Of a stretch of 64,000 nucleotides of DNA, positions 9,432 through 42,106 are shown in pieces. The notes beneath the pieces were generated by a model, which worked only from the letters and a program-made list of their open reading frames with translations, had not been told where the DNA came from and did not search any database. How positions within the stretch are numbered: the first letter of the stretch is position 1; every line of letters begins with the position of its first letter. The DNA comes from Candidatus Latescibacterota bacterium (GTDB lineage: Bacteria; Latescibacterota; UBA2968; GCA-2709665). Made by a program: the position numbers and the translations under genes. The DNA is taken from contig CBDCOX010000002.1 in NCBI GenBank assembly GCA_965219995.1, positions 2,016,001 to 2,080,000 of the forward strand. Reading direction: 5' to 3'.

Positions 9432-12400
9432 ATGGCCCGGTGGCCCCTTCTATTCGGCATCTTCCTGTTCACGTGCGGCAGTGCTGTGGGCCAGGAGTAT
9501 TTCGGCAAGAACAAGGTGACGTATGACGATTACGACTGGCACTATCTGGAGACGGAGCATTTCAAGATCTATTTCGACAAGGCGTCTCAGCCTGCGGCGG
9601 AGTTTGCGGCGAAGGAGGCGGAGCGTGCGCTGGTGCGTCTGGAGAAGGATCTGAAGTATACGTTGAAGGATCGATATCCGATTGTGATCTACAATTCTCA
9701 CAACGGGTTTTCGGTGACGAACATCACGCCGACGGAGCAGTCGGAGTTCACGGGGGGTTTTACGGAGTTTGCACAGGGTCGTGTGGTGATCCCGTATACG
9801 GGGTCGTATAGCGATTTCCGTCACGTGATCCACCATGAGCTGGTGCACGTGGTGACGCTGGAGATGTGGACGGGCGGCGGTTGGCTGGGTGCGATGATGA
9901 CGCAGACGGCGTCGTTGCCGCCGTTGTGGATTGCGGAGGGAGTGGCGGAGTATTTGTCACAGGGTGGATGGGACGGCGAGGCGGACAATTTCATGCGTCA
10001 TGCGACGATCACGGGGTATGTGCCGGGGATGATGTCGCTGAGCGGTGCGTTTGCGTATAAGGGGGGTCAGTCGGTCTTCGTGATGATCGAGGAGGAGTAT
10101 GGCAAGGACAAGGTGGCGGAGTTCATATCGTCGTTCCGTTCCGCGCGATCGGTGGACAAGGCGCTGAAGGCGTCGGTGGGTGAGGGTGTGGAGGAGCTGG
10201 ACGAGAAGTGGCAGTTGTGGTTGAAGCGTCAGTATTGGAACGAGATCAACCTGCACCATCCGTCGGAGGAGGTGGCGAAGCAGTTGACGGAGGCGGGCGC
10301 GGGTCGCGGTTTTTACAATATCGCGCCGTCGTTTTCGCCGCAGGGGGACAAGATCGCGTATGTGACGGAGCGTGAGGGTACGTTCGACATCTATCTGATG
10401 TCGGCGATCGACGGACAGGATCTGGGCCGGTTGGTGGAGGGGGAGCGATCGTCGGATTTCGAGGGGTTGTTCGTGCTGCGGCCCGGGATCACGTGGTCGC
10501 CGGACGGGAAGCAGATCGCGTTTGCGGCGAAGTCGCGCAACAAGAACACGTTGTATACGCTGGACGTGCGGAAGAAGCGGGTGACGAAGCGATTCGAGTT
10601 CGATCTGGACGGGTTGTTCGAGCCGACGTGGTCGCCGGACGGGAAGCAGATCGCGATCGTGGGGTTGAAGGACGGGTGGTCGGACGTGTATATCGTAAAC
10701 GTGGAGGACGAGGGTCTGCGTCGGATGACGCGGGACCCGTATGACGAGAAGCACCTGGACTGGTCGCCGGACGGGGAGTGGATCGCGATCAGTTCGGACC
10801 GTCCCGGCGCGGATCTGGAATACGACGGGTCGAAGGACTTTGTGTTCGGCACGTATAACGTGTTCGTGCTGCGTGCCGACGGCAGCGAGATCCGGCAGGT
10901 GGTGGAGAGCGAGGTGAACGACAGTCATCCCACGTGGGGACCGGACTCCCAGACGCTGGCGTTCGTGTCGGACAGGACGGGGGTGGGCAACATCTACATT
11001 GCGCACGTGGACGGGTCGCAGATGTATCCGATCAGCAATCTGCTGTCGGGAGCGCGGTATATCGACTGGAGCGCGGACGGCAAGAAGCTGGCGTTCACGA
11101 CGTTTCACCGCGGGGGCTATGACATCTTCGTGATGAAGGACCCGCGGCAGAAGAAGCGCGGGATGGAGGACCTGCCGCTGACGCGGTATGCGAAGCGGCT
11201 GGCGGGCATCGAAGACCGCCCGTTCGTGGAGTTGCAGAAGGAACGCAGGCAGGAAGCCGCACACGGCGGCGCGGAACCCGACAGTTCGGTGGCGGCCGCA
11301 GACGCTGACACGGCGGTGGCGACAGCGGCGGCGGACAGGAAGGTGGAGACGTGGATGTCGGACCAGATGGCGCTGGCGGCCGCCGAAGCGCGCGGAGACG
11401 ACGACGGGGCGGCTGCCGACGGCGACAGCCTGGAGACCGACGGCGACAGGGAACTGACGCTGCGAGACTGGAACAAGGCGTTCACGATCAACAAATACCG
11501 CGTGAAACTCAAACCCGAATTCTTCGGGGCCAACGCGGGCTTCGACACCTTCTACGGTGTCAGCAGCCTGCTTCAGTTGTCGCTGACCGACGTGATGGGC
11601 GATCACCGCGTCGTCATTCAGACCGGGTTGAGCTTCTCCCTCAAAGACAGCGATCTCTTCCTCGGATACCAGAACCTCAAGAACCAGACCAACTACTACC
11701 TCAGCGCCATCCACACGCGCCTGTTCTTCTTCGACAGCGGTCAGTTGAACGCGGATCGCTATATCGGGGCCGAAGCCAGCCTGGTTCGGCCGTTCAGCCG
11801 ATTCAGCAGGATGGAACTGGGCACGCGCGGCATCAGGATTTCCCGTGAACGCCTGGAACGGGAACGCTATGACAATCGCTGGGTACGGCGCGGCTTCACC
11901 GGCAGCAGCCTGCGCGGGCTTTCGGGCACCGAAGTCGATTCACGGGGAGCCGTGGTTTCCTACCTGGCCCTCGTCGACGACAACTCGCTGATGGGCGGTT
12001 TCGGCGCCGTGGACGGTCACCGGATGCGCTTTGGCGTTGAGGGAAGCTGGGCGGGAATGCGCTTTGCGGCGTTGAACGCGGATCTGCGACAGTATCTGTT
12101 CACGCTTGGCGAATACACCTTCGCCCTGCGTCTGTCCGGAGGCACCAGCTTCGGCCCGAACAAGAGGATCTATTTCGTGGGGGGCGTCAACAACCCCGTG
12201 AACCCCAATTTCTCCACGTTTGCCAACGTGGACCAGGACCGGATATTCTTCTCCAGTTTCGTCTGGCCGCTTCGGGGCGTGGAATTGTTCGAGCTGGCGG
12301 GCGACTCATACGTACTGGCCAATGCGGCGTTCCGCTTCCCGCTCATCCGGGAACTGGCCATGGGCTGGCCCCTGCCGCTCTTCTTCCAGCACGTTCAGGG

Positions 12401-12683
12401 TGAATTGTTCATGGATATCGGCGGCGCCTTCGAACGGGCCAGATGGAGAGACGGCTGGATCGCCCGCGACGGCGGCTTCGAACTCAACGTGCCGCAGCAC
12501 TTCCGCGACGGAAGGTCCAAACACGGATTCGAGAAACCGCAGATGGCCGCGGGCTACGGATTCGGCGTACGGGTGAATCTGGGCTATTTCCTTTTCCGGT
12601 ACGATCTTGCCTGGCCCACCGACTTTGCGCAGACCTACCATCCTCACCAGTATTTCTCAATTGACCTGACGGGGCATTTCTAA
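9432..12683 (+). CDS. Peptidase MA-like (HEXXH) + PD40/TolB beta-propeller + BamA/TamA-type beta-barrel outer-membrane protein
   Basis: 1083 aa; signal peptide; FGKNKV; HHELVH and W..EG.AEY; repeated WSPDGK (PD40); PLRG motif; GYGFGVRVNLG...RYDLAWP; terminal Phe. Confidence 0.92.
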   Translation: MARWPLLFGIFLFTCGSAVGQEYFGKNKVTYDDYDWHYLETEHFKIYFDKASQPAAEFAAKEAERALVRLEKDLKYTLKDRYPIVIYNSHNGFSVTNITPTEQSEFTGGFTEFAQGRVVIPYTGSYSDFRHVIHHELVHVVTLEMWTGGGWLGAMMTQTASLPPLWIAEGVAEYLSQGGWDGEADNFMRHATITGYVPGMMSLSGAFAYKGGQSVFVMIEEEYGKDKVAEFISSFRSARSVDKALKASVGEGVEELDEKWQLWLKRQYWNEINLHHPSEEVAKQLTEAGAGRGFYNIAPSFSPQGDKIAYVTEREGTFDIYLMSAIDGQDLGRLVEGERSSDFEGLFVLRPGITWSPDGKQIAFAAKSRNKNTLYTLDVRKKRVTKRFEFDLDGLFEPTWSPDGKQIAIVGLKDGWSDVYIVNVEDEGLRRMTRDPYDEKHLDWSPDGEWIAISSDRPGADLEYDGSKDFVFGTYNVFVLRADGSEIRQVVESEVNDSHPTWGPDSQTLAFVSDRTGVGNIYIAHVDGSQMYPISNLLSGARYIDWSADGKKLAFTTFHRGGYDIFVMKDPRQKKRGMEDLPLTRYAKRLAGIEDRPFVELQKERRQEAAHGGAEPDSSVAAADADTAVATAAADRKVETWMSDQMALAAAEARGDDDGAAADGDSLETDGDRELTLRDWNKAFTINKYRVKLKPEFFGANAGFDTFYGVSSLLQLSLTDVMGDHRVVIQTGLSFSLKDSDLFLGYQNLKNQTNYYLSAIHTRLFFFDSGQLNADRYIGAEASLVRPFSRFSRMELGTRGIRISRERLERERYDNRWVRRGFTGSSLRGLSGTEVDSRGAVVSYLALVDDNSLMGGFGAVDGHRMRFGVEGSWAGMRFAALNADLRQYLFTLGEYTFALRLSGGTSFGPNKRIYFVGGVNNPVNPNFSTFANVDQDRIFFSSFVWPLRGVELFELAGDSYVLANAAFRFPLIRELAMGWPLPLFFQHVQGELFMDIGGAFERARWRDGWIARDGGFELNVPQHFRDGRSKHGFEKPQMAAGYGFGVRVNLGYFLFRYDLAWPTDFAQTYHPHQYFSIDLTGHF

Positions 12684-22271: not shown

Positions 22272-22417
22272 CAAATTTTGCCGATCGCCGGGAACGGCCC
22301 GGATTTCGAACGATACATTCGATGACCGGCGACCGTGCGGAATGCTTTTTGTGTTCGGCTGACGGGGTTGATCCGACCGGAACGAAACTTGCGTTTCACA
22401 AGGTTCAGGAGTTCACA

Positions 22418-25400
22418 ATGCTGCGCAAACTCGGCGGCGCGATTCTGTGGTTGATCGCGATTTTCATGCTTTCGTCGGTTACCGTGTTCAATCCGGGACA
22501 GGTAACCGACTTTTTTATTCGTGTTTTCAATATCAAGCCGAGCGTTCCACAGATGCGTGAGGAGAAACCCTCCGAACGGGACGAACGCATCCAGGACTTC
22601 GCCGATCGGATCTCGGAGGCCAGTCTCCGGGAAACCGTTTCGGCTCTGGCCGGTATGGGATCCCGCGTACCGGGGTATCCGGGACACAGGAAGGCCTTCG
22701 AATACGTAAAAAACCGCTTCGAGACGCTGGGCCTGGAGGATATCACGGTTGAGGAACACCACGTCACGGTGCCCATCGACATGGGAGCGACTCTGGAGGA
22801 TCCGGAAACGGGACTCGCGATCCGGCTGTACGGGCTTTGGCCCAATCACGTTCAAACGCCTTCGCTGCCGGAAGGCGGGGTTTCCGGAGCACTGATCGAC
22901 GCCGGGGACGGTTCCTTCAAAGCGCTGAATTCAAAGCAGGTGGAGAACAGCATCGCTCTGATGCAATTCGATTGCGGCCAGAACTACCTCAACCCCCGCA
23001 TGCTGGGCGCGCAGGCCATCATCTTCTACGACAACGGCGGCGTAAGCAGAGGACAGGCCCTGGAGAAAATCCTCCAGGTACCGGTCGACGTGCCCAGGTT
23101 CTGGGTGGAGAAAGCCGACGCTGTCCGTCTCGCGGCACTCGCGCAGTCCGGTGCCACGCTCGTGAGGGTGACGTCCAGAATGTCCTGGGAAAAGGTCCCC
23201 ACGTGGAATATCTACGCCACCCTGCCCGGCTCCGACACTTTCGTCACGGAACGTGAAGAACGGAAGTGGAAGGACGAGATGGTTGTCCTGAGCTCATTTT
23301 ACGACGCCGTCTCCGTCGTGCCCGCATTGGCGCCGGGCGCGGAGAATGCCACCGGGCTGGCTGCCCTGCTGGAAGTCGCGGCAGCGCTGAAAGACGAATC
23401 GTGGCTCGACGGTTCCTCGCGTCTTGCACAACTCCCGCGGTACACGGTGAAATTCCTGGTAACGGGCGCTCACTTCCAGGGGTTGGCCGGGGTCAATGAC
23501 TTTCTCTTCAGGCATTCCAGGGAAAGCGACCACTTCCGGGAAAAGATTCCTGAGGATCAGAAGATCGACTTCCGGCTCTTCGTCGGCTTCGACCTGTCGA
23601 GCGAGACGGACCAGATCGCCAGCTTCTCTCACGGTACGTTTATCAACCCGAACTGGTCGACCAACAACTACGAAAACAACCTGCTTGCGCCCTACGCGAA
23701 GAAATTCAATAAATACCTGGCCAAGGTCTATCCTGGCGAAGCGCGTCACGTGGACGCCGTCGCGCCGCCGAAACGAACCTGGAAGAACTACATGCCCGTC
23801 CGGCTGGGATTCGACAGCGAGGCGGTCAAATTCGTCGGCAAGGAAGGCATTACCCTTGCCAGCCCGTCCACAACGCGCGAAAAGGTGGACACACCCGTCG
23901 ACCGGGTGGAATTCGTCAACTTCCCCAACCTGACCCTGCAAACCCGCACGGCAACCGGCATGCTGCTGAAAGCTCTGGAAGATCCTGAATTCTTCCGGGT
24001 GTCCAAACTCAAACTTCAAGACCTCGGACACAGTATGAAGGGGCGCATCCTCTGGTTCGAACGGGATGCGGATTTTGCGATTCCACGCGTACCCGTACCT
24101 GGGGCCATCGTCACGTATCAGCAGCCGGGGCCGGTTGCCAGCTGCGGCGGTGTCCGAACGCTCATTGTGGACAAGACCACGGAGGGTCCGAGATACGTGG
24201 GCGAACGCTCCCAGGGGGCCATGGTCGGTACGAAGGAGGAAGTGGAGGCCACCGGCCGATTTCAGTTCAACATCATGCGCAACCGGTTTACGAATCAGAT
24301 ATTGGCGTATGAAATCGACGATAACGGCAGAATCATATCGGCGCCGGACCTCGGCACGGAAGGAGAGGAGAAGTTCCCCACCCGGCAGGGTTACGGCTGG
24401 TGGGAGAACGAGATGCTGGCGGTCCTTTTCAAGTGCCGTTCTCTCAGCGTGTTTGAAATCATCGATTCCAGCTATCTTTCGGCGCTCGATTTCATGACCG
24501 TGCTGAACGCCGGCGACTCCCTGCCGATGGAATACGGGTACTATTATATCGAGAACCAGAGCATCAAGGAAGGCGACGTCACGCGGGCGGCGGTCGCATT
24601 TACCGCGATGAACCCCACAACCGGCAGTCCCGATCCCATCAAGATTCTGATGAGCACGGGCCTTTTCGGTGTGAAGTACCTGCTGACGAACGCCCCGGAG
24701 GCGTTGCTGGAACAGCCGGTGGACAAGTGGGACGTGGACGACGAACTCCTGGAACTGTCCCGCGGCGCCGGATATCCTCCCGGGGTCATCCTCCATCCGT
24801 CGTACAAGGCCGCCAAGGATATGTGGGTGGTCGACGATATCCGGATGAAACAGCTTGCGCAGTACGGAATTACAAACGCCCGTCTGGAAAAGCTGCACAC
24901 CCATGCGGCGGACGCGCTGAAACGGGCGCGTGAACATCTGGCGAACCACGACTACGAAGGATTTATCGCAGCGTCCAGAGAGGCATGGGGTCTGGAAGCA
25001 CGCGGATATCCCGAGGTCATGTCCACGGCAAACGACACCGTCCGCGGCATTATCTTTTATTTCATTCTCCTGCTGCCGTTTTCCTTTTTCTGCGAGCGGC
25101 TGCTGTTCGGCTTTCCGGATATCACCCGGCGTCTGGTCGGCTTCGCGGGAATCTTCGTGCTGTTTTTCATCATCCTTCGATACGTCCATCCGGCATTCAA
25201 GCTGAGCAGCACCCCCTACATCATTTTTCTCGCTTTCGTGATCATGGCGCTGGGCGGCATTGCGATGTTCATTGTCGTTTCCAAATTCGGCGAAGAGGTC
25301 CGGAAGATGAAACAGGCCTCGGCGGGAACCTACGAGGCCGACGTGGGTCGGTTGAGCGCGACCGCCGCTTCCATCATACTTGGCATCTCCAATCTGCGAA

Positions 25401-27214
25401 AACGTCCTCTCCGTACCGGACTGACCGCCATCACCCTCACGTTGCTTACGTTTACGGCACTATCGTTCACTTCGGTACAGACGTCCATTAAGTTCTACCG
25501 GTTGCCACGGGACAACCAGCCGCCGTACCCTGGAGGCCTGGTGCGGGACCGATCCTGGAGGGGACTGCAGGAATCGGTGCTCCAGTACCTGACCAGCGCG
25601 TTCAAAGGCCGGGCGACCATTGTTCCCCGGGCGTGGTACCTCTCCCAGGTGCGGGGCGAACGGGCGTACGTCAATTTCTCGCGCATCACCGAGCAGACCT
25701 CCTACCTCGGCTCCAGGGACACCTACGTCGACTTCGACGTGGGCATCACCACCGGAAAAGACAGCTTTGTGAACGGATTACTGGGGCTCACCGCGGAAGA
25801 ACCCCAGATCACCGGGGTCGACCGGTACCTGATGAGCGGGCGATGGTTCGAGCCCGGAGAAACAAACGTGTGCATTCTGCCGAACGACCTGGCGGAGCTT
25901 GTGGGCATCTTCCCGGAAGACGCCGGAACCGCGCAGATCGAGATGCTGGGCGGGGCCTTCACCGTCATTGGAATCATAGACTCCGAAGGATTCAACAAGT
26001 ACAAGGATATGGACGACGAGAAGCTGACGCCGGTGGATACCGTAAAGGAAAAGGACGACCTGGCGGACGCCCAGGACCAGGATCCACGGGTTGTCGCAGC
26101 GGCTCCGATCGAGACGTTTACGCATCTGGAATCGACCAACGTGATGATATTGCCGTATGACTACGTGCGGAATATCGGAGGCACTCTCAACTCCGTCGCT
26201 CTGGCGAACTTCGTGGACTCCCAGGGCAACGCCAGGGCGAACTTCCTGCCGGACGTCGAAGAATTCATGACGCGCGTATCCCTGACGATGTTCGTAGGCC
26301 ACGAGAACAAAGTCACCGTATACAGTTCCATCGGCTCCACGTCTCTTTCCGGACTGGGCACGCTGTTCATTCCCATTCTGATCGCGGCGCTGATCGTGCT
26401 GAATACCATGATGGGTGCTGTGTACGAACGCTTCAACGAAATTGGCATTTATTCGGCGGTGGGTCTGGCGCCCAACCACATTGCGGCGCTGTTCCTGGCC
26501 GAGGCGACGGTTTTCGCCACGGTCGGCGCCGTCTTCGGGTATCTGATCGGACAGGTCCTGGTCCTTGTGTTGTTTACCCAGGCGCAGGCCCAGGGACAGC
26601 TGCTCAGCCTTGAATTGAATTATTCTTCGTTGTCGGCCATTTCCTCGACACTGATCGTCATGGCGACGGTTTTCCTCTCTACGCTGTACCCCGCGAAGAA
26701 GGCCGCCGATATGGCCGTCCCGGATGTGACGCGGAAGTGGGAGTTTCCGGAGCCGGAAGGCGACAGATGGGTGTTCGACTTTCCATTTACGGTTGGCGGC
26801 TCGGAAGTACTGGGAATGTACACGTACCTGACCCGCGTCTTCGAGTCATACGGCGAAGGATCCGTAGGCGACTTCGTGGCCGACTACGTCCGGTTCACGT
26901 CCCGGGACATGCAGGGGGAACCGCAGTACGAAATCAACCTCACGTGCTGGCTTGCGCCTTACGATCTGGGCATCAGCCAGGAGGTGGCGCTGCTGGCCAT
27001 ACCAACGAGAGAATACAACATTTACAAGATCGAGGTGGTTATCAACCGGCTCAGCGGCGACGTGGCGTCATGGAAGCGGATCAACCGGGGGTTCCTGAAC
27101 GTGCTCCGTAAAAGGTTCCTGGTCTGGCGTACCATTCCGCCCGAGTTGAAACACCAGTACGCCGACGAAGGCAAACGCATGCTCTCAGACACCGTGGAAG
27201 AAGCCGCAGTATAG
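22418..27214 (+). CDS. Giant fusion: M28-peptidase-like ectodomain + TM block + MacB/FtsX-type permease
   Basis: ATG 22418 after AGGAG (1598 aa). SRVPGYPG, VVLSSFYD, APGAENATG; later NLRKRPLRTGLT and LNTMMGAVYERFNEIGIYSAVGL..LFLAEA (FtsX). Confidence 0.9.
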   Translation: MLRKLGGAILWLIAIFMLSSVTVFNPGQVTDFFIRVFNIKPSVPQMREEKPSERDERIQDFADRISEASLRETVSALAGMGSRVPGYPGHRKAFEYVKNRFETLGLEDITVEEHHVTVPIDMGATLEDPETGLAIRLYGLWPNHVQTPSLPEGGVSGALIDAGDGSFKALNSKQVENSIALMQFDCGQNYLNPRMLGAQAIIFYDNGGVSRGQALEKILQVPVDVPRFWVEKADAVRLAALAQSGATLVRVTSRMSWEKVPTWNIYATLPGSDTFVTEREERKWKDEMVVLSSFYDAVSVVPALAPGAENATGLAALLEVAAALKDESWLDGSSRLAQLPRYTVKFLVTGAHFQGLAGVNDFLFRHSRESDHFREKIPEDQKIDFRLFVGFDLSSETDQIASFSHGTFINPNWSTNNYENNLLAPYAKKFNKYLAKVYPGEARHVDAVAPPKRTWKNYMPVRLGFDSEAVKFVGKEGITLASPSTTREKVDTPVDRVEFVNFPNLTLQTRTATGMLLKALEDPEFFRVSKLKLQDLGHSMKGRILWFERDADFAIPRVPVPGAIVTYQQPGPVASCGGVRTLIVDKTTEGPRYVGERSQGAMVGTKEEVEATGRFQFNIMRNRFTNQILAYEIDDNGRIISAPDLGTEGEEKFPTRQGYGWWENEMLAVLFKCRSLSVFEIIDSSYLSALDFMTVLNAGDSLPMEYGYYYIENQSIKEGDVTRAAVAFTAMNPTTGSPDPIKILMSTGLFGVKYLLTNAPEALLEQPVDKWDVDDELLELSRGAGYPPGVILHPSYKAAKDMWVVDDIRMKQLAQYGITNARLEKLHTHAADALKRAREHLANHDYEGFIAASREAWGLEARGYPEVMSTANDTVRGIIFYFILLLPFSFFCERLLFGFPDITRRLVGFAGIFVLFFIILRYVHPAFKLSSTPYIIFLAFVIMALGGIAMFIVVSKFGEEVRKMKQASAGTYEADVGRLSATAASIILGISNLRKRPLRTGLTAITLTLLTFTALSFTSVQTSIKFYRLPRDNQPPYPGGLVRDRSWRGLQESVLQYLTSAFKGRATIVPRAWYLSQVRGERAYVNFSRITEQTSYLGSRDTYVDFDVGITTGKDSFVNGLLGLTAEEPQITGVDRYLMSGRWFEPGETNVCILPNDLAELVGIFPEDAGTAQIEMLGGAFTVIGIIDSEGFNKYKDMDDEKLTPVDTVKEKDDLADAQDQDPRVVAAAPIETFTHLESTNVMILPYDYVRNIGGTLNSVALANFVDSQGNARANFLPDVEEFMTRVSLTMFVGHENKVTVYSSIGSTSLSGLGTLFIPILIAALIVLNTMMGAVYERFNEIGIYSAVGLAPNHIAALFLAEATVFATVGAVFGYLIGQVLVLVLFTQAQAQGQLLSLELNYSSLSAISSTLIVMATVFLSTLYPAKKAADMAVPDVTRKWEFPEPEGDRWVFDFPFTVGGSEVLGMYTYLTRVFESYGEGSVGDFVADYVRFTSRDMQGEPQYEINLTCWLAPYDLGISQEVALLAIPTREYNIYKIEVVINRLSGDVASWKRINRGFLNVLRKRFLVWRTIPPELKHQYADEGKRMLSDTVEEAAV

Positions 27215-27305
27215 GAAATACGTAACCGGTAAATCTGTCACCCGGCGGGTTGAGACGGGCAACCTGTTTTCGGGAGAGAAAACTCGCTGCTCCTAATGAG
27301 GAGGG

Positions 27306-29360
27306 GTGGTTTTGGCAATCGATCCCAAGGATCCCAGAGAAGAGCAGGAACAGTACGAACATATCATGCCGGCGGACGCGCCGTTTGAAGATGGCTTCAA
27401 TATGAAGACCCTGTGGGCGACGCTGTTCGTGGGGCTCGTGATGCTGCCCGGCGCGATCTACCTTGGGTTGGTTACCGGTCAGAATATGGCCGGCGCGTCC
27501 GAATGGGTGACCATCATCCTTTTCCTGGAGATCGCAAAGCGGTCCTTTGTGCGGCTGAAAACACAGGAGGTCCTGGTCATCTACTGGGTCGCCGGCGGGC
27601 TGCTTGGCGTGGGTGTGCGGCTGGGCAGCGCGGCGCTGGTGTACGGCGGTCCCTTCGGCGGATTGATCTGGGACCAGTACCTGATCCAATCTCCGGCGGC
27701 GAGAGGGCTTGCGGACTATATCCCGGACTGGGTGGTTCCCCGGATCAGCGAACACCCGGAGATTTACGCGGAACGGACGTTCCTGCACGCCGCGTGGTTG
27801 AAGCCCATTGGCATCCTCGTTGCATTGACGCTCCTGAGCAACACCGCAAGGCTGTCGCTTGGGTACGTGATGTTTCGTATTACGAGCGACATCGAACGGT
27901 TGCCGTTCCCACTGGCGCCGGTTCAGGCCCGCGGGGCCACTGCGCTTGCCGAGACATCGGCCAAGCAGGAGGGCTGGAGATGGCGGGTATTCAGTACCGG
28001 CGCGTGTATCGGACTGGTCTGGGGCCTGCTCTATGTTGTTGTCCCTACGCTTTCCAGCATCTTCCTGACCGATACGGTCCAGATTCTGCCCATTCCCTGG
28101 ATCGATTTTACGGAACAGATCAAAACGATTCTGCCTGCCGCGCTGTTTGGAATCGCAACCGACCTGGGACACCTTATTGTCGGATTCGTGCTGCCGTTCT
28201 GGGTGGTTATCGGGTCGTTTGCCGGCGCTGTCCTGGGCAACCTGGTTGTTAATCCGTTTCTCTACAAATACGAGATCCTGGACCGCTGGTCTGCCGGGAT
28301 GACGGCAATCCCGACGTCGATCTCCAACCAGTTCGACTTCTGGCTTAGTTTCGGAATCGGCACGTCGTTCGTCATCGCGTTCACGGGATTTTACCAGGTG
28401 TTTCGGGTGCTTGCGGAACAACGCCGTCAGAAACGGGAAACAGGACATCATACAACGGGCATCGACCTCGAGGACCTGCCGGAGGGCCGCTCGGATATGA
28501 AGATGATCTACCCGATTCTGGCCTGGGGCGCGGCCACGCTTGGCTTCATTGTGATGTGCCAGATGCTGGTTCCCGAATTTCACTGGGGCTGGGTTGTGTT
28601 CTTCGGACTCATCTACACGCCGATTTCTTCTTATATCGGCGCCCGAATGATCGGCCTGACCGGAAGTCCGTACGGGGCGAGTATTCCCTATCTGCGCGAG
28701 GCGGGGATTCTTCTGTCAGGGTACAAGGGCGTCGCGGTCTGGTTCGCGCCCCTTCCCCTGCATGACCACGGTCTCGCCGTGCCGACATACAAACAGATGG
28801 AGCTGACCAAAACGAAGTTTGTCAGTTACGTGAAACTGACCGCGGTGACCATGGTCGTCATCTTTATTTTCAGCTTCATCTTCTGGGAATTCATCTGGCG
28901 ACTCGGCCCCATCCCGTCGTCAAGCTATTACTATGTGCAAACCTTCTGGCCATACGACGCCACCATGACCACGATGTGGCTGAAGTCGACCATGCCGGAC
29001 CTCGAAGGTCAGGGGACCGTTGGCGTCGAACTCCTTAGAGACATCATCAAACCACACATCATCGGCGCCGGTTTCGCCGTCGGCGGCCTCATGTATCTGA
29101 TTCTGGCCGCGTTGAAAGCGCCAACGCTGTTCTTTTTCGGATTTGTGGGCTCGCTGGCCACGTGGCCGCATTTCGTGATTCTGCAGTTCGCCGGCGCGCT
29201 CCTCGGGCGTTACTACTTCGCCAGGCGATTCGGCGAATCCAAATGGAGGGCCTACGCGCCGATTCTGCTGGCCGGGTATTACTGCGGCATGGGGCTCATC
29301 GGGATGACGTCGGTTTCGGTCGTGCTGATTTCAAAGGCCGTCTCCCAGGTCGTCTTCTAG
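27306..29360 (+). CDS. OPT/YSL-like oligopeptide transporter-related membrane protein
   Basis: 684 aa, highly polytopic; FEDGF, MLPGAIYL.L..G, EWVTIILF.E, IERLPFPLAPV and PILLAGY.CG.GL; GAGGAGG RBS. Confidence 0.82.
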   Translation: MVLAIDPKDPREEQEQYEHIMPADAPFEDGFNMKTLWATLFVGLVMLPGAIYLGLVTGQNMAGASEWVTIILFLEIAKRSFVRLKTQEVLVIYWVAGGLLGVGVRLGSAALVYGGPFGGLIWDQYLIQSPAARGLADYIPDWVVPRISEHPEIYAERTFLHAAWLKPIGILVALTLLSNTARLSLGYVMFRITSDIERLPFPLAPVQARGATALAETSAKQEGWRWRVFSTGACIGLVWGLLYVVVPTLSSIFLTDTVQILPIPWIDFTEQIKTILPAALFGIATDLGHLIVGFVLPFWVVIGSFAGAVLGNLVVNPFLYKYEILDRWSAGMTAIPTSISNQFDFWLSFGIGTSFVIAFTGFYQVFRVLAEQRRQKRETGHHTTGIDLEDLPEGRSDMKMIYPILAWGAATLGFIVMCQMLVPEFHWGWVVFFGLIYTPISSYIGARMIGLTGSPYGASIPYLREAGILLSGYKGVAVWFAPLPLHDHGLAVPTYKQMELTKTKFVSYVKLTAVTMVVIFIFSFIFWEFIWRLGPIPSSSYYYVQTFWPYDATMTTMWLKSTMPDLEGQGTVGVELLRDIIKPHIIGAGFAVGGLMYLILAALKAPTLFFFGFVGSLATWPHFVILQFAGALLGRYYFARRFGESKWRAYAPILLAGYYCGMGLIGMTSVSVVLISKAVSQVVF

Positions 29361-29476: not shown

Positions 29477-29950
29477 ATGAGAGTTGGTAACGGGATCGCG
29501 GGAATGACGCTCATTGCCTGTATGGTATTGGCGTTTGCCGTGGAGGCGACGGCACAACCGGACAGACGAGGCGGGCGTGGGCGCGGGGGGCGCGGCGGAG
29601 GCGCAAGGCTTCGGATGATGCTGCCCCTCGAACAAACGCTGGGTTTCCTGGCCTTCGACAAAACGCTCGCCTTAAAGGACGATCAGCTGATCAAGATCCG
29701 CAGTGAACTCAAGGATATCCACGAAAAGCGCGCCGAACTTGAAAAGGAAATGCGGGGCGGAGCCGACAGGCAGCAACTGATGCAGAAACTCGGCGGGATT
29801 CGAGGCGCCATGTTTGAAAAAATAAAGGCCGTACTGGACGACCGGCAGGACAAGATTCTTGACCGTTACCTGGAGAGAATACGACGGGGGTTTCAACGCG
29901 GACGCGGCGGCGGACGGCGGGGAGGCGGCCCTCCCGGCGGCGGCGTTTGA
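29477..29950 (+). CDS. Secreted small helical protein (Spy/CpxP-like) with Arg/Gly-rich ends
   Basis: Signal ending ATA-Q; LKDDQ and LDDRQ motifs; RGG-rich tracts at both ends; GGAGG RBS. Confidence 0.75.
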   Translation: MRVGNGIAGMTLIACMVLAFAVEATAQPDRRGGRGRGGRGGGARLRMMLPLEQTLGFLAFDKTLALKDDQLIKIRSELKDIHEKRAELEKEMRGGADRQQLMQKLGGIRGAMFEKIKAVLDDRQDKILDRYLERIRRGFQRGRGGGRRGGGPPGGGV

Positions 29951-29980
29951 CACGATCACTCCCCTCCAGGATCGATGATG

Positions 29981-30010
29981 TGGCGGCCCCCGGCGGGGTC
30001 GCCATTTTTT
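29981..30010 (+). terminator. Rho-independent terminator
   Basis: TGGCGGCCCC-CGGC-GGGGTCGCCA followed by T6. Confidence 0.85.
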
Positions 30011-40426: not shown

Positions 40427-40540
40427 CGCCACACCTGCAGCACGTTGCGGCGGGCAGGCAAGCGGCCGGCCGCCCCACGAGCGATTGGCGGAGACTACGG
40501 GTCGATTCAAACCACCGGAATTGTCTTACAGAGGATGAAT

Positions 40541-41191
40541 ATGGAAAGTCAACGATCTCACCACCGTTCAACCGTAAGGGTATCCAAGCTGCTGTCTCTC
40601 ATGCTCCGCCATCGGCCGGACGAGTTCGGCATTGAGGTCGATGGGTACGGCTATGCGGATTTCGACGCCGTGATATCCGCGTTGAAGAAACAAGACGCGA
40701 GTATTGAAACCGAAGACGTTGAAGCTCTGGTCTACCGGGCCGCCAAGAAACGGTTTGAGATTGTCGACGGCCGAATCCGGGCGCGCTACGGGCACAGCAT
40801 TTCCATGGAATTGGGAACCGATCCCGTGGAACCTCCGGAACACCTGTACAAGGGCTCGGGTGCATCGGAGGTGGAAGACATCCTGAAATCCGGCTTGAAG
40901 CCCATCGACCGGCAGTATGTTCACCTCTCTTTCGAGGCTGCCGTGGCGCGCAGGCTGGCGGAACACAGGCGGGAGCCCGGCGCCGTGATACGGGTGGATG
41001 CGCGCAGGGCCGCCGCGGACGGTATTCAATTCTTCGACTGCGGACCCACGATCCTCGCACGGGAGATTCCGTCCGAGTTTCTGTCTGTCGACGACGCGCC
41101 GGCACCGGCGCCGGATGACGGGTTGACGGTGAAACAAAGCGAGGGGCCGGTGACGTACGGCAGAAAACGCCGATTTGGGTCCCGGAGATAG
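40541..41191 (+). CDS. kptA: RNA 2'-phosphotransferase (Tpt1/KptA)
   Basis: SK.LSL.LRH.P, KKRF, IRARYGHS and RQYVHLS. Confidence 0.92.
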   Translation: MESQRSHHRSTVRVSKLLSLMLRHRPDEFGIEVDGYGYADFDAVISALKKQDASIETEDVEALVYRAAKKRFEIVDGRIRARYGHSISMELGTDPVEPPEHLYKGSGASEVEDILKSGLKPIDRQYVHLSFEAAVARRLAEHRREPGAVIRVDARRAAADGIQFFDCGPTILAREIPSEFLSVDDAPAPAPDDGLTVKQSEGPVTYGRKRRFGSRR

Positions 41192-41215: not shown

Positions 41216-42106
41216 ATGGCGAAACAAGATCGGTCCGGAGCATACGCGTTATTGAATGCAGCCGCCAATCTCTCCGGTGAGATTGGCGCCGATCTCGTGT
41301 TGCTCGTGGCGGATTCCGGCGTGAGCCGGACGGCGGTACAATCCCTGAACGATGCCTGCCCGGTCCTGCTGGTCACCCGGCGCGATCGATTTCTTCAGGG
41401 CATCGAGGACAACGGGATCCGCCGGTTGAGGCTGGACCATGACGAGGTCTCCCATCTGGAACGGGTGCGGCATGGGATCTCTCTGGGCATGGAAGCCGGC
41501 CACATCAAGAAGGGCAGCCGGCTGATCTGCCTGGCGAGCGCCCTGGAACACGGCGGCGTGGACACCCTGATGACCGTGGACACGCGCAGGGAGTTGGAGG
41601 ACTTCGATCCGGAGAGCCTGGCCGCTCTCGCCGGAGAACTGCCCGTTGAAGTGGTCAAGTCGGTGCTGGATATTGCCCTCGACATCGGGCGTGAAGGCCG
41701 GGAAGGGGAACAGCTCGGCACGCTCTTCGTGCTTGGCGACTCGGACCGTGTCCTGGCCAATTCCCGCGTGATGACGTATGATCCGTTCCGAGGGTATTCA
41801 AAACGTGAGCGGAATATCTGTGATCCCGACAACCGCGAAGGCGTAAAGGAAGTCGCCCTGATGGACGGCGCATTCATCATCCAGGAGGATGGCGTAATAC
41901 GCTCAGGTTGTCGTTATATTACCTCTTATGTGAGGGGTCTCACCCTGCCCAAGGGACTGGGCGCACGGCATGTCGCCGCTGCGGCGGTCACCAAGAACAC
42001 GAACGCCATCGCGGTGGCGGTTTCGGAGTCGACCGGAACGGTAAGGGCATTCAAAAAGGGAGAGATTGTCCTCCGGCGAGATCCGGGCCGACGCATCGCC
42101 CGTTGA
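41216..42106 (+). CDS. Diadenylate cyclase, DacZ-like (DisA_N domain with soluble N-terminal domain)
   Basis: EGREG...GTLFVLGD, DGAF, GLGARH.AAA and VSESTG; no TM helices. Confidence 0.9.
   Translation: MAKQDRSGAYALLNAAANLSGEIGADLVLLVADSGVSRTAVQSLNDACPVLLVTRRDRFLQGIEDNGIRRLRLDHDEVSHLERVRHGISLGMEAGHIKKGSRLICLASALEHGGVDTLMTVDTRRELEDFDPESLAALAGELPVEVVKSVLDIALDIGREGREGEQLGTLFVLGDSDRVLANSRVMTYDPFRGYSKRERNICDPDNREGVKEVALMDGAFIIQEDGVIRSGCRYITSYVRGLTLPKGLGARHVAAAAVTKNTNAIAVAVSESTGTVRAFKKGEIVLRRDPGRRIAR

Follow-up and report, generated by a model that had tools for sequence, protein, structure and literature searches.

A conserved gene pair of uncultured Latescibacterota encodes a MacB/FtsX-type membrane protein with an M28-like head and a predicted divergent OPT-superfamily transporter

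Organization of the locus

This study concerns two adjacent genes, here called A and B, in a 64,000-nucleotide stretch of the genome of a Candidatus Latescibacterota bacterium (GenBank assembly GCA_965219995.1, contig CBDCOX010000002.1, positions 2,016,001 to 2,080,000 of the forward strand); the whole stretch is referred to as the window. A encodes a giant membrane protein that joins a PA/M28-like head to a MacB/FtsX-type module, and B encodes a polytopic protein that we assign to the OPT superfamily of transporters. A reading of the DNA alone (the original prediction) had described the two as a transport/sensing system with no ATPase. The gene pair is conserved yet undescribed in Latescibacterota and related uncultured bacteria. 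Homologues of A make up at least 1324 protein clusters and those of B at least 2231, and the window has a 98% identical counterpart in a complete Latescibacterota chromosome. A literature search, with subscription journals and closed supplements outside its scope, found no paper on the domain combination described here and none on DUF6785, DUF6784, PF20581 or PF20580, families that recur beside relatives of A (see below).

The reading frame of A is open from 22322 to 27214 (features are listed in Table 1). Its most likely start is the ATG at 22418, because this codon is preceded by AGGAG and a database protein 98% identical to A (P0123) has exactly the same 1598-amino acid (aa) length. The frame of B extends from 27306 to 29360, and two start codons were considered: a GTG at 27306, which would yield the 684-aa protein originally described, and a TTG at 27312, which would yield 682 aa. 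The TTG is probably the true start, given the GAGGAGG sequence that ends seven bases before it and the 682-aa length of a homologue, P0003, which begins with MAI. Upstream of A, a promoter scan found no sigma-70-like site; an Rfam search across the whole window returned no family, and even a permissive search of the sequence 5′ of A detected neither a riboswitch nor any other RNA.

Downstream of B lies a short third gene, whose product has no Pfam or NCBIfam match. A homologue of this gene directly follows B in 38 of the 80 related loci described below. The 157-aa secreted protein is probably the third member of the operon, and a terminator-like hairpin behind it is the likely operon end. What had been called a two-gene system is therefore a conserved pair extended by a third small gene and closed by a terminator.

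Table 1. Coordinates of the genes and features discussed in the text (window positions unless a locus is given)
Feature	Position	Strand	Description or basis
Gene A, 1598 aa	22418..27214	+	TM1, PA/M28-like ectodomain, 3-TM block, MacB/FtsX module, cytoplasmic C-terminal domain
A, N-terminal TM helix (signal anchor), residues 5-23	22430..22486	+	Hydropathy
A, PA-inserted M28-like domain with altered active-site positions, residues ~81-520	22658..23977	+	Pfam, profile matches, invariant columns
A, further ectodomain without fold match, helical at its end, residues 521-870	23978..25027	+	Pfam, PDB and Atlas negatives
A, extra three-TM-helix block, residues 874-953	25037..25276	+	Hydropathy, conservation
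A, MacB/FtsX-type module, residues 996-1431	25403..26710	+	Pfam FtsX, PDB sequence and Foldseek matches
A, putative cytoplasmic alpha/beta domain, conserved, residues 1435-1598	26720..27211	+	Conservation, low-confidence model
Shine-Dalgarno sequence of gene B (GAGGAGG)	27298..27304	+	Sequence
Gene B, 682 aa, predicted divergent OPT-superfamily polytopic transporter	27312..29360 (TTG start)	+	Homology, model, start analysis
Third gene, 157 aa, with signal peptide, Gly/Arg-rich ends and helical core	29477..29950	+	Sequence, hydropathy
Terminator-like hairpin, 11 pairs (8 G-C), then T run	29980..30005	+	Sequence
Cluster after B in related loci	L054:14234-17365; also L048, L051, L064 (L053 cut)
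Long Planctomycetota A homologues	L069:4640-13750, L071:5993-15382, L075:6761-15067, L078:6833-15166

Domain architecture of A

Hydropathy analysis placed eight transmembrane (TM) helices in A, at residues 5-23, 878-896, 906-924, 935-953, 1002-1020, 1310-1328, ~1355-1386 and 1405-1423. The three helices at 878-896, 906-924 and 935-953 constitute an extra block, and the last four belong to the FtsX module. With the N-terminus inside, residues ~25-875 and 1023-1305 would be periplasmic, and a linker (961-1000), a loop (1333-1354) and the tail (1435-1598) would face the cytoplasm. Pfam detected M28 (PF04389) at residues 282-429 with 28.3 bits (cut-off 21.3; profile positions 11-128 of 193) and FtsX (PF02687) at 1317-1431 with 53.6 bits (profile positions 5-117 of 120), and a PA match at 157-236 reached 18.1 bits, under its cut-off of 23.9. 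Open reading frame (ORF), Pfam and hydropathy thus agree on the predicted architecture of a 1598-aa protein with an M28-like ectodomain, an extra TM block and a full MacB/FtsX module. For the second part of the ectodomain, residues 521-870, there was no Pfam match and no PDB sequence match by profile, and the ESM Atlas scores obtained for residues 520-870 (0.78-0.80) are at chance level. Conservation within A was assessed in 14 sequences of 51-80% identity, in which 16-20% of the ectodomain positions are invariant.

The extra TM block is better conserved, with 27 of 90 positions invariant, and carries the residues E893/R894 and an H924-P-A-F motif. The module that follows has the complete layout of an FtsX domain, consisting of TM1, a periplasmic domain of ~285 aa, TM2, a coupling loop (1333-1354), TM3 and TM4. 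The TM2-TM3 loop is the most conserved segment of the entire protein, with 15 of its 22 positions invariant, and it keeps the family's usual ER..EIG...G sequence; TM1 and TM2 of the module each have 10 invariant positions out of 27. By sequence, the FtsX part matched YtrF, MacB, LolC and LolF in the PDB. A model of residues 860-1598 was of low confidence (mean predicted local distance difference test score (pLDDT) 63.9, predicted TM-score (pTM) 0.42), with badly placed TM helices and a better predicted periplasmic domain. Foldseek matched it to LolE, MacB, HrtB and YbbP and also to isolated periplasmic domains of MacB, LolC, LolE and YknZ.

In the C-terminal tail, 54 of 147 positions are invariant. 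No Pfam or NCBIfam match was found for it, a PDB sequence profile returned only noise, no relatives outside the family were detected, and residues 1435-1598 had no usable match in the ESM Atlas. The tail was modeled at pLDDT ~70-88 as a strand, a helix, four strands and two helices, and this part of the low-confidence model gave weak Foldseek matches to START, StARkin and Bet v1 proteins (E ~5e-3).

Altered active-site positions in the M28-like head

Three motifs of the head had been singled out as departures from the M28 zinc and catalytic positions, namely FYD in place of HxD, GAENATG in place of GAxDNxSG and AHFQG in place of AEExG. All three were read in the A sequence. A search profile built from 15 ectodomain sequences matched the PA/M28 aminopeptidase 2ek8 (E 5e-13), Bacillus YwaD (6hc6) and the Aeromonas/Vibrio leucyl aminopeptidases (1amp/2anp), as well as two non-catalytic M28 relatives, Nicalin and the transferrin receptor. 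In the profile alignments, the A consensus ayyDa aligns with SHHDS, apGaENa.G with APGA(N)DDASG, and sAHFqGl with GAEENGL, which sets the three motifs of A against the HxD, GA(x)DD.SG and AEE.G of 2ek8.

For the functional assignment of individual positions we rely on what we take to be the roles of the corresponding residues in the Aeromonas aminopeptidase, with Glu151 as general base and Glu152 as zinc ligand. The position of the first zinc-ligand His is Phe293 in A (F293-Y-D296). It is occupied by F, Y or H among homologues, two of which (P0191 and P0199) keep the His as HYD, so that the exchange of HxD for FYD holds for the window protein and not across the family. The position of the bridging Asp is Glu309, in a loop one residue shorter than that of M28. 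In the alignments to 2ek8 and 6hc6, the general-base Glu corresponds to His352, and the zinc-ligand Glu after it to Phe353. Glu309, His352 and Phe353 are invariant in the 14 sequences, as are Asp392 and Glu468; the latter two presumably represent the second Asp and the last His, an assignment made from the motif pattern, since the printed PDB alignments end earlier. A is therefore related to M28 by sequence and fold similarity and lacks the AEE.G pair, the His of HxD and the bridging Asp. An intact di-zinc site had been named as the observation that would overturn the proposal of a degenerate peptidase; judged by the alignment to 2ek8, the canonical di-zinc M28 site of A is not intact, and the proposal stands.

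Because the replacements E309, H352 and F353 are strictly conserved, the alignments argue for a head that retains a binding site, or has an unusual catalytic one, rather than for decay. These residues bear on an alternative view of the pair in which A and B are co-regulated and physically independent: A, a membrane-anchored exopeptidase whose metal site is non-canonical, would trim extracellular peptides, and the products would be imported through B. In keeping with this view, polar residues (E309, H352, D392 and E468) are invariant at former metal or catalytic positions, the overall M28/PA fold is kept, some homologues retain the first His, and further large secreted peptidases, of the MA type and of S8, are encoded in the window. 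Nevertheless, we consider it quite unlikely, as the invariant changes of Glu152 to Phe and of Glu151 to His would, if the roles assumed above are correct, take away a zinc ligand as well as the general base that are known from every characterized M28 enzyme, and as an independent exopeptidase leaves the MacB module, the 3-TM block, the conserved cytoplasmic domain and the association of A subfamilies with particular partners (see below) unexplained.

B is a divergent member of the OPT superfamily

B itself has no Pfam or NCBIfam match, and neither B nor any of its 21 close relatives (0/21) matched the OPT profile PF03169 at E ≤ 1. Its affiliation emerged from more distant relatives. An exhaustive phmmer search with B yielded 929 representative clusters at E ≤ 1e-3, 268 of them at E ≤ 1e-30. 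Of the 120 homologues listed in a separate database search, 8 carry a precomputed PF03169 label, and some database homologues are named "peptide transporter". When 20 relatives of B were scanned with Pfam, PF03169 matched 8 of the 11 full-length proteins that were most distant from B, 7 of these 8 above the cut-off; it was absent from all seven closer full-length relatives and from both longer forms. The relatives that match PF03169 are related to B over the full length (27-31% identity, phmmer E 1e-41 to 1e-56), and their PF03169 scores reach 54 bits and span the whole profile.

An AlphaFold (AF2) model of B built on 75 sequences had a pLDDT of 90 and a pTM of 0.91. Foldseek matched this model to barley Yellow Stripe 1 (YS1; 7wsr/7wst) with an E of 7e-10 and TM-scores of 0.64/0.71. 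YS1 was the sole PDB match at E ≤ 0.001, the next having E >0.01 and a TM-score of ~0.1; a PDB sequence profile for B gave nothing meaningful. Since distant full-length relatives match PF03169 and the model matches YS1, we classify B, on this homology and modeling evidence, as a divergent OPT-superfamily transporter. The description of the downstream gene as OPT-like is thus upheld through intermediates and fold, with the qualifications that B has no Pfam match of its own and that a length of 682 aa is the likelier one. No match to DUF6785 or DUF6784 (PF20581 and PF20580) was found in B.

The pairing of A with an OPT-superfamily partner is conserved

A pattern scan of species-representative genomes identified 385 loci with relatives of A. 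The figures below rest on the best 80 of these, whose labels, where given, are Candidatus Latescibacterota, Gemmatimonadota or Planctomycetota and most of which span 10 kb on each side of A. B adjoins A in 62 of the 80 loci, and in 55 of these 62 it starts 0-200 nucleotides downstream of A on the same strand, with a median gap of 41.5 nucleotides. The other 18 loci lack B, and 16 of them have a protein of 650-670 aa with DUF6785 and DUF6784 (Pfam E 1e-99 to 1e-126) beside A, often on both sides; the two with neither partner, L050 and L080, extend less than 2.1 kb upstream of A. B and a DUF6785-type protein occur together in seven loci. An hhalign comparison of a broad B/OPT alignment with DUF6785/DUF6784 gave a probability of 97.3% (E 2.6e-11) over 553 columns, and one that used only close relatives of B gave 75% over 145 columns. 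By this profile evidence, DUF6785/DUF6784 is a remote relative of OPT and B, so that 78 of the 80 A genes can be said to have an OPT-superfamily neighbor, either of the B or of the DUF6785 type. The conserved A-B unit envisaged in the original prediction is thereby corroborated, and the DUF6785 and PqqD partners that it named are present in related loci. Of the similar pairs that it placed in PVC bacteria and archaea, the former are represented by Planctomycetota homologues, and no archaeal homologue occurs among the best 80 of the 385 loci or the named matches.

A tree of the C-terminal half of A (77 rows, quick search) placed the window in a 44-row clade (support 99) whose members all have B only. 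In its 16-row sister (support 100), 15 rows have a DUF6785-type partner, and the remaining rows of the tree are mixed. Subfamilies of A thus track the type of partner; because related sequences share labels, this amounts to a stable association and is no proof of co-evolution.

Several features of individual homologues deserve mention. A proteins 94% identical to that of the window occur in records labeled Gemmatimonadota (L003, L005 and L007) and Candidatus Latescibacterota (L004, L008 and L009), and those of L004 and L007 have identical C-terminal halves. The phylum labels of these metagenome-assembled genomes are inconsistent, and therefore no cross-phylum conservation is to be read from them. 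In Planctomycetota, some A homologues reach 2768-3130 aa through a long N-terminal extension with Big_5 Ig-like domains. The chromosome nearly identical to the window also holds a paralogue of A with 56% identity (L072:7946-24157; same record as L002), which has DUF6785/DUF6784 proteins on either side, with a heparinase II/III-like protein and two FG-GAP/lambda-carrageenase-propeller proteins of ~1250 aa alongside; similar loci are L057-L068, L073 and L074. The arrangement suggests a variant of the module with a link to glycans.

Such loci suggest a further alternative, namely that the module as a whole serves envelope or glycan biology, for example by moving a lipid-linked or glycan-derived compound with the START-like tail accommodating a hydrophobic ligand in the cytoplasm. 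The giant neighbors of the paralogues (900-1300 aa), which are heparinase II/III-like, rhamnogalacturonan-lyase-like or FG-GAP/lambda-carrageenase-propeller proteins, fit this idea, as do the START, StARkin and Bet v1 matches of the tail. Furthermore, some MacB relatives, including LolCDE, HrtBA and YbbAP-TesA, are described as extracting hydrophobic molecules from the membrane. Against it stand the weakness of the START-like matches, drawn as they are from a model of mean pLDDT 63.9, and the surroundings of A and B in the window, which are without such glycan genes. In addition, the known OPT substrates are peptides, glutathione and metal chelates (PMC12831333). A glycan or lipid role is therefore the least likely of the explanations considered here, and we regard it as improbable.

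An ATPase is rarely encoded near A

Proteins with the FtsX/MacB fold are expected to work with a nucleotide-binding domain (NBD). To our knowledge, all FtsX/MacB modules studied so far are ATP-driven mechanical devices, and the genes for type VII NBDs are usually fused or adjacent to that of the permease. The ORF scan covered 48 long ORFs in the window, A, B and 46 others, and Pfam detected ABC_tran in none of them; when a LolD-type ATPase served as phmmer query, the six-frame ORFs of the window yielded no match. A thus has no cognate NBD, fused or alongside, in the window. Across the 80 loci, a motif scan combined with phmmer flagged ABC-like ORFs in eight. Four of these ORFs were rejected as partners of A, being UvrA, an ATPase of the MalK type, an importer ATPase next to a BPD_transp_1 permease, and a guanylate kinase (a false positive). 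A LolD-type ATPase is present in the other four (L048, L051, L054 and L064), which leaves 76 of the 80 loci without a type VII ATPase neighbor. The claim that no ATPase lies beside the pair is borne out by these counts. The finding named beforehand as contrary to it, namely homologues consistently accompanied by a dedicated ATP-binding cassette (ABC) ATPase and not by the OPT-like gene, was looked for in the same loci, where the ATPase occurs in 4 of 80 and the OPT-superfamily neighbor in 78 of 80; the claim was not overturned.

The four ATPase-bearing loci share the gene order DUF6785, TPR, A, B, 294-aa protein, PqqD-like protein, 228-aa FtsX protein and 245-aa ATPase, with everything from A to the ATPase on one strand. 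The ATPase scores best against the models of LolD, MacB, DevA, YbbA and FtsE, the small FtsX protein is without a periplasmic domain, the 294-aa protein belongs to no family, and the PqqD-like protein has a weak lasso-PqqD match. All four loci fall within one 7-row clade of the A tree. The small FtsX family comprises at least 6341 matches, with identities of 58-100% among the top 120 listed.

These loci are central to the strongest alternative, which sees in A an ordinary type VII ABC mechanotransducer served by an ATPase from an unlinked gene of the same genome. ATP would then work the periplasmic head, possibly with the small FtsX protein as partner in a LolC/LolE-like heterodimer; the head would extract or expel something, or control a hydrolytic step as FtsEX does, and B would be a functionally linked importer that may recycle released peptide. 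An unlinked ATPase is possible because the FtsX domain of A is canonical and its coupling loop is the most conserved segment of the protein. In MacB, this loop is the main coupling helix and touches the NBD (PMC5985334). The characterized relatives matched by A (YtrEF, MacB, LolCDE, HrtBA, YbbAP and FtsEX) are all described as working with an NBD, the four loci carry the small FtsX and LolD-type ATPase genes on the same strand after B, and members of the small FtsX family abound in the same phyla. Yet such an ATPase is missing nearby from 76 of the 80 loci, in conflict with the usual linkage of type VII NBD genes to their permeases. Moreover, the four positive loci may reflect a single event, since they belong to one small clade, and the small FtsX protein could use the neighboring ATPase by itself. 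On balance, an unlinked ATPase strikes us as somewhat unlikely, although it ranks ahead of the independent exopeptidase and of the glycan or lipid role, in that order.

Proposed function of the module

The reading that we tentatively prefer, while giving it less than an even chance, is that A, B and probably the 157-aa protein form one operon that encodes a single inner-membrane uptake machine. In this machine, B would be an OPT-fold secondary transporter that provides the path of the substrate across the membrane, and A would be an accessory subunit with eight TM helices and a periplasmic PA/M28-like head. The head may bind a peptide-like ligand with a free N-terminus, most likely without cutting it, because the M28 catalytic Glu and at least two zinc ligands have been lost. 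The MacB/FtsX module, probably dimeric, would mechanically link the head to the cytoplasmic face through the coupling loop and the C-terminal domain. Capture of a periplasmic ligand by the head would cause a conformational change that, transmitted via the MacB-like stalk, presents the ligand to B, and B would finally import it on the proton gradient. Inferred in this scheme are a direct association of A with B, the nature of the ligand, import as the direction, and the energy source of A or its need for an ATPase. A complex prediction with two A TM segments and B (three chains with their own alignments, run without controls) scored 0.02 against a mark of 0.32 and counts neither way.

Several observations weigh against an uptake machine of this kind. 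Gene adjacency alone is no proof that A binds B. The invariant Glu309, His352, Asp392 and Glu468 could form a working non-canonical metal site instead of a dead one. A coupling loop that is canonical and conserved above all other parts of A would be expected if an ATPase still docks there, and in one clade a LolD/MacB/FtsE-type ATPase, the 228-aa FtsX protein and a PqqD-like gene do follow B. The paralogue loci hold heparinase-like and FG-GAP/carrageenase-propeller giants, and these neighbors point to glycans rather than peptides, at least for that subfamily. Finally, the MacB-type machines known to have been studied push substrates outward or regulate hydrolases, and we know of none that feeds an importer.

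The uptake machine has a bolder version, in which A is the first MacB/FtsX-type mechanotransducer to work without any ATPase: the tail would replace the NBD under the coupling loop, and the cycle would be driven by, or would gate, the proton-coupled OPT-fold partner. We think this version unlikely. If true, it would define a new class of transporter, consisting of a secondary carrier and a membrane-integral binding subunit with a pseudo-peptidase head on an ABC permease fold. Every part of the module belongs to a known fold family, and the system would be categorically new only if such ATPase-independent coupling to the OPT partner holds.

Whichever reading is correct, the A family breaks the pattern of ATP-driven FtsX/MacB proteins in being large, conserved, usually without a neighboring ATPase and paired with an OPT-fold carrier. 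Much could be learned in either case, from a new way of energizing the FtsX/MacB fold or from a new three-way machine in which an ATPase, a MacB-like subunit and a secondary carrier cooperate. In addition, the family would give a first functional context to DUF6785/DUF6784 and to the almost unstudied bacterial relatives of OPT, and it offers, in A, a clear bacterial example of an M28 domain whose catalytic positions carry invariant replacements. Uncultured Latescibacterota, Gemmatimonadota and Planctomycetota are known mainly as polymer degraders, and the module may therefore be a major route of nutrient capture in sediments and soils.

Other features of the window

Two further loci in the window stand out. 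At 9432-12683, a 1083-aa protein shows an unusual fusion of Peptidase_MA_2 with a PD40/DPPIV-type beta-propeller and a C-terminal Omp85-like domain. At 41216-42106, a diadenylate cyclase with a DacZ_P-type sensor domain adjoins a Tpt1/KptA RNA 2′-phosphotransferase (40445-41191).

Comparison with known systems

A shares with the type VII ABC systems MacB, LolCDE, FtsEX, YtrEF and YbbAP the four-helix FtsX module, in which a large periplasmic domain separates TM1 from TM2, and the canonical TM2-TM3 loop. It differs from them in having no fused or adjacent NBD (in the window and in 76 of the 80 loci), in carrying ~990 extra N-terminal residues and a conserved 165-aa cytoplasmic tail, and in being paired with an OPT-fold protein instead of an adaptor or ATPase. 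B resembles the OPT/YSL family (TC 2.A.67, PF03169) in its predicted YS1 fold and in its full-length homology through intermediates that match PF03169, whereas it is only 13% identical to YS1, lies below Pfam detection together with its close relatives, and is encoded with a giant MacB-like partner.

Like the PA-domain M28 aminopeptidases 2ek8 and YwaD (6hc6), A has a PA domain inserted in an M28-like fold, and like the transferrin receptor and Nicalin, it has an incomplete canonical catalytic set. Unlike all of these, its head is fused in cis to a polytopic MacB-type module and has E309, H352 and F353 as invariant residues. The DUF6785/DUF6784 proteins (PF20581, PF20580) are remote homologues of B over nearly the full length and replace it beside the paralogues of A, but B appears to represent a separate subfamily, and DUF6785/DUF6784 proteins often stand on both sides of the A paralogue. 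The TRAP/TTT transporters, which likewise combine an extracytoplasmic binding module with a gradient-driven carrier, offer a functional analogy only: there is no homology, and the binding module of A would be membrane-integral and joined to an ABC-type permease fold.

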